Both the position numbers and the translations under genes were made by a program. The notes below the pieces were generated by a model. It searched no databases, was not told where the DNA came from, and saw nothing but the letters and a program-made list of their open reading frames with translations. A stretch of DNA of 64,000 bases from Candidatus Latescibacterota bacterium. Its GTDB lineage: Bacteria; Latescibacterota; UBA2968; GCA-2709665. Of the stretch, positions 49,928 through 51,654 are shown one piece after another. The stretch lies in the NCBI GenBank assembly GCA_965203805.1, contig OZ241917.1, positions 5,792,001-5,856,000 on the forward strand. The letters run 5' to 3'. The stretch's first letter is position 1. Each line of letters begins with the position of its first letter.

Positions 49928-51091
49928 TCAGTGGATCAGCCGCTCTTCCAGCGCACGAAACGGGTGCGGAATGAGATGGGCCGACACGAGTTCGCCGTAC
50001 CTCTCCGCTTCCCCGGCCCCGACTTGCAGGGCGGTGCGCACCGCGCCGACGTCTCCCCGGACAACGCTTGCCGTGAGAAAGTACCCGACCTTGTATCGAC
50101 CCTCGTATTCCACGTCCGCGGACTTCAACATCTGATCAACGGCCTTGACCAGAGCCACGGTGCTGCGCGTCTCGATCAGGCCCATGGCCTGATTCCCGCT
50201 CGTGGTCCTTCCGGCCTCGCACCGGCCGAAACAGGCCATGATTTCGGAAGACGGACGGGAAACGACGCAGGATGCATTCAGTTCTCCGGCCTCCTGCGCG
50301 CCGCCGACACCGGCGTCGACGGCCGCCTGGACGGCGTCCAGCCGGCCTTTCACCAGTGCGTCCACCCGGCCTCCGCTGGCGATGACGAGGCGCACGAGGT
50401 CGACGTCCGCCGCTTTGACCATTGCGTCGGAACCGCCCACAGCGCTTGCATAACCCGTTGTTTCAAGCACTCCGAGCGCGCCGGCGTCTTCCCGGGGCCC
50501 GTTTGAAACCGGTGGTACCGGAAGCAGTGGTTCGACGCCCGCCTCCGGCCTCGGAATCGTCAGGGCCGCGTAGACTTCCCCGACCTCATCGGCACACGCT
50601 TTGCCGGCCTGCAGGGCAGTCTGCACCGATGAAATATCGCCCCGAACCACGAGATGGACCAGCGCGCCGCCAACCGACGTCCAGCCGGCGACGCGAACGG
50701 GCGCGCTCTTGACCATCGCGTCTGCGCCACGGATGAGCGGGACCATGCCCCGCGTTTCGAGGATGCCCATCGCCCCGGCGTCAAACGGGCCTTTGGCGTC
50801 CGCGTCCGTCCGGTGCGGCATGGACTCGAGGGCGCCCGGGACCGGGCCCGCGATGACGTCGGCGGTAATCAGGTCGCCGTGGTTCACGGCTTCGGATCGT
50901 CCGATCCGAATGGCGGCCTCGACGTCCGATACGACACCTTCGATCACAACCGTCAACCAGCCGGAACCCACGCCGTGACGTCCCAGAACCCGAACGTCGA
51001 CGGTTTTCAGCATGGCGTCCACGGCCGCGACAAGCGCGGTCATGCCGCGGGTTTCCAGAATCCCCAGGGCATGATTTCGCGGGGGCGCCAC
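49928..51091 (-). CDS. Bacterial microcompartment shell protein with four tandem BMC domains
   Basis: Four repeats A(L/M)G(I/V/L)(L/I)ET..D.M.K...V...G.(V/I/L)..V..A; GTG start 5 nt after the upstream stop. Confidence 0.88.
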   Translation of the reverse strand: MAPPRNHALGILETRGMTALVAAVDAMLKTVDVRVLGRHGVGSGWLTVVIEGVVSDVEAAIRIGRSEAVNHGDLITADVIAGPVPGALESMPHRTDADAKGPFDAGAMGILETRGMVPLIRGADAMVKSAPVRVAGWTSVGGALVHLVVRGDISSVQTALQAGKACADEVGEVYAALTIPRPEAGVEPLLPVPPVSNGPREDAGALGVLETTGYASAVGGSDAMVKAADVDLVRLVIASGGRVDALVKGRLDAVQAAVDAGVGGAQEAGELNASCVVSRPSSEIMACFGRCEAGRTTSGNQAMGLIETRSTVALVKAVDQMLKSADVEYEGRYKVGYFLTASVVRGDVGAVRTALQVGAGEAERYGELVSAHLIPHPFRALEERLIH

Positions 51092-51096
51092 GGCGC

Positions 51097-51654
51097 TCAG
51101 GGACCGAATGCCCGCAGGACGTCGGGCAGGGGTCTGGTGATGAGGGCGGCGCCCAGGTAGTTTTCTCCGGGCTCGACGCTCGTGCGGCCCACGGGCAGGG
51201 CCTCGGACACGGAAGCCACGTCGCCAAGTATCAGGGAGCAGACCACCCGGTTGTGTACGGTGAGCACGTTGTAGACCTGGACGTCGGCCGCCTTCACCAT
51301 TTTGTCGTTGGCGGTGACGTGAGCGCCATATCCTCTCGTTTCGATCATACCCAGCGCTCCGGACGGTGTCCGCCGCCCGGATGCGATTGCATTCGAGACG
51401 TATTCCCGGCAAACGGGTTCGGGGTGGGTCATCGGCGCCGCCACGACGTGGTCCACCACCTCTCTGGCCGCCTGTTCGCCGCTCTTGAGCGCCGTTGCCA
51501 CCCGGCTGATGGATCCGCCGAAAAAAACGGTGGTGAAGCCACCGATGGATTCCCAACCCAGAAGATCCACGCCCGCGGCTTTGCAGGCGGCGTCCGACGC
51601 CAGAATAATCCCGGCGACGCCTTCGACTTCGATCATGCCGATCGCTGCTGACAT
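51097..51654 (-). CDS. Bacterial microcompartment shell protein with two tandem BMC domains
   Basis: AIGMIEVEG..DAACKAAGV and ALGMIETRG..DKMVKAADV..GDVASV..ITRP. Confidence 0.9.
   Translation of the reverse strand: MSAAIGMIEVEGVAGIILASDAACKAAGVDLLGWESIGGFTTVFFGGSISRVATALKSGEQAAREVVDHVVAAPMTHPEPVCREYVSNAIASGRRTPSGALGMIETRGYGAHVTANDKMVKAADVQVYNVLTVHNRVVCSLILGDVASVSEALPVGRTSVEPGENYLGAALITRPLPDVLRAFGP

Follow-up and report, generated by a model that had tools for sequence, protein, structure and literature searches.

A 64,000-nucleotide (nt) stretch of the genome of a Candidatus Latescibacterota bacterium (contig OZ241917.1 of assembly GCA_965203805.1, positions 5,792,001-5,856,000 of the forward strand; hereafter, the window) contains two adjacent genes whose products are built from two and four domains, respectively, of the bacterial microcompartment (BMC) shell family PF00936. 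We refer to the two-domain protein of 185 amino acids (aa) as BMC2, with domains A1 and A2, and to the four-domain protein of 387 aa as BMC4, with domains B1 to B4. Positions given below are those of the window. For each domain we also list the pore loop, the edge motif and the support of its clade in a domain tree that is described further below.

51097..51654 (including the stop codon), minus strand: BMC2, 185-aa two-domain shell protein; open reading frame (ORF) from ATG at 51654, PF00936 twice
51439..51645, minus strand: domain A1, PF00936; pore loop GWxSIG-GfTT; edge motif DAACK; clade support 1.0
51130..51357, minus strand: domain A2, PF00936; pore loop nVLTVHnRVVC; edge motif DKMVK; clade support 0.999
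49928..51091, minus strand: BMC4, 387-aa four-domain shell protein; GTG start at 51091, PF00936 four times
50843..51070, minus strand: domain B1, PF00936; pore loop GRHGiGSGW; edge motif DAMLK; clade support 0.995
50546..50773, minus strand: domain B2, PF00936; pore loop GWafiGGALcH; edge motif DAMVK; clade support 0.949
50252..50479, minus strand: domain B3, PF00936; pore loop RlsigSGGR; edge motif DAMVK; clade support 0.99
49961..50188, minus strand: domain B4, PF00936; pore loop GxyKVGYfLTA; edge motif DQMLK; clade support 0.999

Five nt lie between the stop codon of BMC2 and the GTG start of BMC4. Pfam recognizes two PF00936 stretches in BMC2 (E 1.7e-32, 111.6 bits) and four in BMC4 (E 7.7e-76, 250.5 bits), against a cut-off of 24.5. 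The best stretches are nearly full-length, covering positions 1-72 of the 75-position model in BMC2 and 1-75 of 75 in BMC4, and in the genome-level matches positions 1-75 are covered in five of the six domains and 1-72 in A1. Since these stretches span nearly the whole model, the domains are non-permuted. A preliminary description of this DNA had claimed this very arrangement, adjacent genes with two and four non-permuted domains and a 5-nt gap, and the PF00936 counts bear it out. The six edge motifs and six pore-loop strings that it listed are all found in the translations, and its remark that the window lacks genes for pentameric (BMC-P) and single-domain hexameric (BMC-H) shell proteins agrees with our scan, which found neither PF03319 nor any further PF00936 match there.

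Pairwise identity among the six domains is 27-44%. Ranked by E-value, the top NCBIfam model for either protein is CcmO, at a score below its own cut-off; two other NCBIfam cut-offs are passed by BMC4 and none by BMC2. Because BMC4 passes only through the summing of four domains, and BMC2 passes none, the NCBIfam names (CcmO, EutM, CsoS1) are not usable here. We also rejected as a gene a 603-aa ORF (49928-51739, minus strand, TTG at 51739), a high-GC extension of the BMC4 frame that crosses BMC2 in another frame; this artefact could mislead gene callers.

The two genes form a conserved unit. A word-indexed protein search found 255 relatives, of which the best 120 are 366-424 aa long, are 53-96% identical and come from records labelled Latescibacterota or Gemmatimonadota. 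Scanning one genome per species yielded 69 loci, 66 with a complete gene and three cut by the end of a contig. A two-domain frame lies directly upstream of the four-domain frame, always in this order, in 66 of the 66 complete loci, which answers the preliminary description's suggestion that four-domain homologues be checked for an adjacent two-domain gene. With each start inferred as the start codon closest upstream of the first domain, the gap between the frames ranges from -8 to +14 nt in 65 of these loci (37 of the 66 have an 8-nt overlap) and amounts to 175 nt in the remaining one (L065), a spacing that fits translational coupling. BMC4 is present in 83 of the 168 species genomes of the phylum, with one copy in each. 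No six-domain fusion or other split of the domains occurs among the best 120 of the 255 relatives, and fused relatives of 679-2000 aa were not found, although by the search tool's own statement this is weak evidence. Nor is there a fused or re-split form among the best 150 matches in 1.84 billion cluster representatives (50% identity). In this library the BMC4 family consists of one full-length representative and fragments, and the longest match among those listed has 569 aa and only two PF00936 domains.

The six domains are also conserved as six distinct positions. We built a tree of 555 BMC domains cut from the 66 loci and the window, with 67 genomes for each position. Each of the six positions forms its own clade of 67 sequences (support 0.949-1.0), and the six clades stand apart from the domains of neighbouring tandem-domain (BMC-T) and BMC-H genes. 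The pore loop differs at each of the six positions and is conserved within each. The edge lysine of BMC domains (D-x-x-x-K) serves tile-to-tile contacts, and all six of these lysines, K25 and K121 in BMC2 and K29, K128, K226 and K323 in BMC4, are the same in all of the 29 + 29 aligned sequences. A fixed ring with six different places predicts exactly six separately conserved positions, which a BMC2 homotrimer plus a BMC4 assembly would not need. Deeper in the tree, A1 joins B2 and then B1, A2 joins B3, and B4 joins BMC-H, with support of 0.78-0.92. We had considered that the pair might have originated by triplication of a BMC-T, and dropped this idea because the deep tree has no odd/even pattern.

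Structure prediction points to a single ring. Modelled alone with AlphaFold2 (AF2), BMC4 is predicted with a mean local confidence (pLDDT) of 90.9 and a predicted template modelling score (pTM) of 0.89, and its secondary structure, as assigned by DSSP, repeats the order β-α-β-β-α-β four times. The three linkers are of lower confidence and similar length, ~20 residues each, with unstructured stretches at residues 82-106, 180-204 and 279-301. The best structural match of the model is 6NER, on which two consecutive domains superpose with a TM-score of 0.90 (target-normalised) at 37-39% identity; in the model, two consecutive BMC4 domains would thus have the geometry of neighbours in a hexamer. 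Among 53 PDB sequences that match BMC4 at E <= 1e-10, the longest chain has 213 aa and none has four domains.

We then co-folded BMC4 and BMC2 at 1:1, with a 29-row alignment for each chain. The interface score ipSAE was 0.74 (runs 0.79, 0.70 and 0.74), while the best of three controls scored 0.01; such a mark is reached by 58 of 80 solved complexes and, among 110 mismatched pairs, by 2. At least 93% of the contacts recur between runs, and the pLDDT of the partner is at least 89. BMC4 residues 9-93 (B1) contact BMC2 residues 107-138 (A2), and BMC4 residues 309-366 (B4) contact BMC2 residues 7-87 (A1), with the pore loops side by side. Most of these predicted contact residues are invariant, and the related pairs number only 67. 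These B1-A2 and B4-A1 contacts give a predicted closed ring in the gene order A1-A2-B1-B2-B3-B4. The 1:1 fold had been proposed as a check in the preliminary description, and its outcome is the six-domain ring envisaged there.

The shell to which such a ring could belong is encoded elsewhere. The genome is a single contig of 5.87 Mb, and a PF00936/PF03319 scan found only two BMC-domain genes besides BMC2 and BMC4, as well as three BMC-P genes. These five genes sit in a main locus at 2.460-2.470 Mb (matches at 2.4627-2.4695 Mb), 3.4 Mb from the pair, with the three PF03319 copies at 2.4630-2.4654 Mb. According to Pfam, the main locus encodes PTAC, a 499-aa protein without a family, BMC-H, BMC-P, AldDh (aldehyde dehydrogenase), two further BMC-P proteins, a class II aldolase and acetate kinase; the second BMC-H, of 155 aa, lies 1.7 kb beyond acetate kinase. 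We take this gene set to be that of a planctomycete-type (PVM-like) microcompartment. The PF00936 scan revealed no BMC-T gene in the main locus, nor elsewhere in the genome besides the 2+4 pair, which is the genome's only candidate pseudohexamer.

Across the phylum, PF03319 is found in 82 of the 83 genomes with BMC4, and the exception (G148) is 78% complete. Pentamers occur without BMC4 in 64 genomes of the phylum, so the pair is accessory to the shell. Given the separate main locus with its three pentamer genes and the pentamers in 82 of 83 BMC4 genomes, we interpret the pair as a satellite shell tile. The preliminary description had left a choice between a satellite of a shell encoded elsewhere and a non-shell scaffold or sensor, and the three PF03319 copies come down on the satellite side. 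Fragmented 'FRAG' types with a BMC-P triplet are reported in Gemmatimonadetes and candidate phyla in the main text of PMC8217296, and in the sense of that text the pair is a satellite of a fragmented (FRAG/PVM-like) microcompartment.

Loci of the larger sister family contain the pair within a full set of shell genes, which argues against a free scaffold. In one such locus (L036), the Pfam annotations before the pair are rhamnose mutarotase, an FAH-family hydrolase, AldDh, BMC-P, PTAC, BMC-T, BMC-H and a 149-aa protein without a family; thereafter come BMC2, BMC4, a DHDPS-like enzyme, a DAO-type oxidoreductase and a second DHDPS-family protein. Close to the 2+4 genes, ~50 related loci have a further BMC-T + BMC-H pair, which the 13.7-kb loci of the window's clade (L012-L025) lack.

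Downstream of BMC4, the module includes a gene for an enzyme with an additional N-terminal domain, which we call the N-domain:

48719..49888, minus strand: DHDPS/NAL-family class I aldolase-like enzyme, 389 aa; PF00701 (E 1.5e-55, residues 74-361)
49739..49888, minus strand: N-domain, a ~50-residue α/β domain at the N-terminus of the DHDPS-like enzyme; no Pfam family

The gene starts 39 nt past BMC4, and its homologues lie directly downstream of BMC4 in 65 of the 69 loci (60-96% identity). The protein consists of the N-domain, a linker of variable length and the catalytic barrel, and with a mean column identity of 77% it is more conserved than the tile. Its closest solved structure is the 2-keto-3-deoxygalactonate aldolase YagE; KDG aldolases, DHDPS and sialate lyases are also among its closest solved relatives. 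Because the protein scores below the cut-off of every NCBIfam equivalog, we assign no specific enzyme name. The tyrosine of the motif LYNIP and the lysine of GTKDSS, which is presumably the Schiff-base position, are invariant in 24 sequences. The invariant lysine suggests that the enzyme is probably active, in which case it would release pyruvate and an aldehyde, the kind of reaction that microcompartments enclose. The C-terminal tail (48719-48830, minus strand) contains ~30 conserved residues (DMGY.V.G.RACPVT.LPPIVGR) with two invariant cysteines; the PF00701 match ends before it, at residue 361 of 389. At 4-8 kb from the module, in the window's clade only, there is a galactonate dehydratase (NF010624, 399.8 bits, cut-off 311) as well as a second enolase-superfamily gene (40606-41919, minus strand, and 43458-44882, plus strand). 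Together with the YagE-like aldolase, these two genes suggest a non-phosphorylative sugar-acid route to pyruvate and an aldehyde, and they would fit a 2-keto-3-deoxy-sugar-acid as the substrate.

The N-domain has the consensus ...RIDDxVITxxxL....E....P.A.LTPxAxDYLR... and is predicted with a pLDDT of 77-87, followed by a disordered linker of variable length (residues 53-85), within an AF2 model of the whole enzyme that is only fair (pLDDT 65.5). A Pfam search at E <= 10 gave no match for it, and its best neighbour in the ESM Atlas scores 0.82, below the level that is meaningful. It matches, with 46% identity (E 1e-10), the N-terminal part of a ~150-aa protein of the sister loci (L036 5533-5982, plus strand). 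In most sister loci, 1-14 nt separate the end of the gene for this protein from BMC2, the extremes being a 4-nt overlap and 103 nt. The protein has seven conserved cysteines, a cysteine-rich middle part and a C-terminal amphipathic helix that resembles an encapsulation peptide. In a profile search, N-domains adjoin the pair in 66 of 66 loci: 45 of these have one on each side, 18, including the window's case, have one only downstream, and three have one only upstream. The profile has a single occurrence in the window's own genome, and its strong matches in the phylum fall in 83 of the 83 BMC4 genomes and in two incomplete genomes without a BMC4 match. The sequence and its distribution lead us to propose the N-domain as a putative targeting or docking domain (for tile docking or encapsulation) tied to the 2+4 tile. 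Weaker matches elsewhere are to an RpiB-like protein with an encapsulation-peptide-like helix of its own. One example, in genome G086, is a 260-aa RpiB-like protein (L081 2048-2830, plus strand) with an N-terminal amphipathic helix and a weak N-domain match (E about 1e-7). The RpiB-like gene adjoins a PhyH-like gene in genomes without BMC4, and is more than 1 Mb from the BMC-P genes of G086.

Sequences of this stretch are present in sponge, coral and marine metagenome runs of seven studies, and in metatranscriptome libraries of two studies there are contigs that cover the pair and the enzyme. The BMC2/BMC4 junction is bridged by one RNA-library contig (X19 record 8; 1497 nt, 90 differences) and the BMC4/enzyme junction by two (X19 record 7 and X20 record 10). 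Another RNA run (X21) gave no matching contig and a further one (X18) left parts of the stretch uncovered, neither of which speaks for absence of expression. A promoter and terminator scan of 45500-52200 gave four promoter-like and six terminator-like sites, the latter number being near the expectation from shuffled sequence, and none of these sites is in the 105-nt spacer before BMC2.

From these results we conclude that BMC2 and BMC4 probably form a 1:1 asymmetric tile of six domains that is a satellite component of a shell. A 1:1 tile was also the interpretation of the preliminary description, and it is favoured by the domain counts, the synteny, the PF03319 scan and the co-fold, the heterodimer itself being predicted. 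To the observed gene structure, domain counts, conservation, synteny and co-occurrence, this conclusion adds a ring closure that is modelled, while the stoichiometry in the cell, the place in the shell, the pore or docking role and the substrate are inferred. In the mechanism that we propose, the two proteins would be made in about equal amounts from closely coupled genes and would most likely join 1:1 in one closed ring, A1-A2-B1-B2-B3-B4. This ring would be a pseudohexameric tile of about the size of a BMC-H hexamer, without internal symmetry. It could sit in a facet, because all six edges keep the tile-contact lysine. The pair would act as a satellite module for the shell encoded 3.4 Mb away, where the hexamer gene, the three pentamer genes and those of the core enzymes are. 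The module would supply an aldehyde-forming DHDPS-family aldolase, with its private ~50-aa N-domain on a flexible linker, and the tile may be a dedicated entry pore and/or docking site for this aldolase or its 2-keto-3-deoxy-acid substrate.

Several points weigh against this interpretation. Hexamers and trimers of BMC proteins are well represented among solved structures, so a high co-fold score may show likeness to these rather than choice of partner. As the controls were unrelated proteins, and not other BMC proteins, the predictions do not demonstrate a preference for BMC2 over BMC-H or BMC-T. A natural six-domain fusion would prove action as one ring, and none was found in the searches described above. 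Close coupling of genes suits any shared function, not solely a 1:1 complex, and RNA-library contigs cannot prove a single transcript, since carry-over of DNA is possible. The deep branching among the six clades has no clean odd/even pattern that would point to an origin of the pair. Finally, the pore or docking role and the substrate are suggested by context alone.

We also considered other arrangements of the two proteins. BMC2 has the two-domain architecture of a standard BMC-T, and it could form a homotrimer of this type while three BMC4 chains, with 12 domains in all, build a pair of rings that are stacked or lie next to each other, the genes being neighbours only through their shared module. 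Three chains in two rings do solve the equation 4n = 6m that a four-domain chain imposes, double-stacked trimers are known for BMC-T(dp) (main text of PMC8217296), and synteny alone cannot distinguish separate assembly from a heterodimer. However, all three linkers of BMC4 are ~20 aa long, with no long B2-B3 linker for crossing between rings, and BMC4 alone is predicted as one rigid unit (pTM 0.89). Furthermore, the co-fold puts both free ends of BMC4 on BMC2, and the six separately conserved pore loops fit a ring of six positions, where a BMC2 trimer would need only two. We consider separate assembly unlikely. Alternatively, BMC4 could be a four-domain arc whose gap is filled by two BMC-H monomers or by another BMC-T, with BMC2 forming its own tile or mixing variably. 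Paralogous BMC-H proteins are known to mix in one hexamer (CcmK3/CcmK4, cited in the main text of PMC8217296), the genome has two BMC-H genes, and the further BMC-T + BMC-H pair of ~50 related loci would offer additional subunits. On the other hand, this further pair is absent from L012-L025, the window's own genome has no further BMC-T, and BMC2 is the sole partner that is always present and adjacent (66 of 66 loci). Moreover, its domains form deep clades of their own, distinct from BMC-H and BMC-T domains. An arc completed by other subunits therefore strikes us as very unlikely.

The pair might also act outside any shell, as a free scaffold or sensor made of BMC domains that organises the DHDPS-like enzyme. 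The absence of BMC-P and BMC-H genes from the window and the private N-domain of the module would be in line with this. Yet all six edge lysines are invariant, BMC-P is encoded in all BMC4 genomes except the one that is 78% complete, and the pair of the sister family lies in a locus with AldDh, BMC-P, PTAC, BMC-T and BMC-H. A role apart from shells is, in our judgement, highly improbable.

Returning to the 1:1 six-domain tile, we tentatively raise the idea, which we hold to be possible but rather doubtful, that it is 'addressable': the symmetry-free tile would have co-evolved with the private N-domain as its docking partner, such that one tile binds one N-domain in one orientation and tethers the aldolase directly beneath an asymmetric pore that suits its 2-keto-3-deoxy-acid substrate. 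As a speculative part of the same joint reading, sister lineages would also tether the ~150-aa cysteine-rich protein as an adaptor. If true, this would be a new, tile-specific lock-and-key mode of cargo loading and a natural template for shells in which the six positions of each tile can be engineered one by one.

To our knowledge, the facet tiles characterized so far are all symmetric homo-oligomers (hexamer, trimer) or mixes of single-domain paralogues. The main text of PMC8217296 agrees with this picture. One of the nearest known classes is BMC-T(s), such as PduT and CcmO, in which each chain has several non-permuted PF00936 domains and a pseudohexamer has six, an architecture that BMC2 alone also has. 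However, BMC-T(s) proteins are homotrimers with three-fold symmetry and two kinds of domain, whereas the 2+4 pair would have six kinds and no symmetry. The pair as a unit is not BMC-T, since the two-domain criterion applies to BMC2 but not to the four-domain BMC4. The best match in sequence and fold, 6NER, is a synthetic tandem BMC-H from Haliangium ochraceum in which the C-terminus of one BMC-H-like domain is likewise linked to the next, but it is man-made and forms trimers with two identical domains per chain, while BMC2 and BMC4 are natural and have six diverged domains on two chains. The CcmK3/CcmK4 heterohexamers of beta-carboxysomes resemble the pair in that the tile comes from more than one gene, at a satellite locus, and is thought to tune permeability (main text of PMC8217296). 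They differ in that single-domain subunits mix in the ring, while covalent linkage fixes the order of the six positions in the 2+4 pair. According to the same text, satellite 'EUT modules' (EutABC plus an EutL-type tile) also bring together, at a satellite locus, a dedicated tile and a signature enzyme that forms an aldehyde, and are proposed to extend the substrate range of the main microcompartment. Their tile, though, is a permuted BMC-T(sp) and their enzyme is ethanolamine ammonia-lyase, as opposed to the non-permuted 2+4 tile and a DHDPS-family aldolase, and the DHDPS-like enzyme carries a folded domain of ~50 aa, not only an amphipathic helix.

Natural chains with more than two PF00936 domains are not confined to BMC4. 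We found natural BMC proteins of 286-330 aa (P0132-P0136, P0142, P0160 and P0174) that have three PF00936 domains in eight of eight scanned representatives and are collinear with adjacent BMC-T + BMC-H gene pairs. Among 80 metagenome loci found with P0136, the three domains are in one frame only in L084 (4956-5882, plus strand); the others mostly have 2+1 or 1+1+1 genes with near-zero gaps. For such a 2+1 unit, too, a mixed ring is conceivable. These proteins share with BMC4 the natural chain of more than two domains, but they belong to a distinct family, with 26-49% identity among themselves. They are absent from the phylum, where the two matches are cross-matches to BMC4. Our literature search found nothing on three-domain BMC proteins, nothing relevant on four- or six-domain BMC chains or a heterodimeric BMC tile, and nothing on a DHDPS-family enzyme with microcompartment shell proteins. 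Chains with more than two BMC domains are unmentioned in the main texts of PMC8217296 and PMC4207490; the supplements to these papers, which list shell proteins per locus and lie outside this search, may include them. The 2+4 tile thus appears to be undescribed in the searchable literature. It would act like a BMC-T, with several domains per chain and six per ring, yet it fails the BMC-T definition.

The remaining neighbours of the module are less widely conserved. Downstream of the DHDPS-like gene (45866-48641, minus strand) are genes for a CehA/McbA-family metallohydrolase, a PhyH-family dioxygenase and a Zn-dependent dehydrogenase. Of these, the metallohydrolase and the dioxygenase are kept in the window's clade and in L060 and L073, the dehydrogenase only in L012-L024, and none of the three is found in the larger sister family. 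Upstream of BMC2 are genes for an 806-aa multi-pass membrane protein without a Pfam or NCBIfam match (51760-54180, minus strand) and a 1523-aa protein with M28 peptidase and FtsX permease domains (54305-58876, minus strand), which are syntenic only in the window's clade (L012-L025).

A natural tile with six different positions in a fixed order would, if true, mean that the pores and docking sites of shells need not be symmetric. It would explain how a shell whose main locus has no BMC-T gene could nevertheless possess a specialised conduit, and it would offer engineers a scaffold that can be modified at any one of its six positions independently of the others. The 2+4 family is not a one-off, being present in 83 of the phylum's 168 species genomes, and the stretch itself recurs in sponge, coral and marine metagenomes. 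With its unnamed N-domain, the DHDPS-family enzyme that is linked to the pair points towards a microcompartment function, and a targeting signal, that are as yet undescribed.

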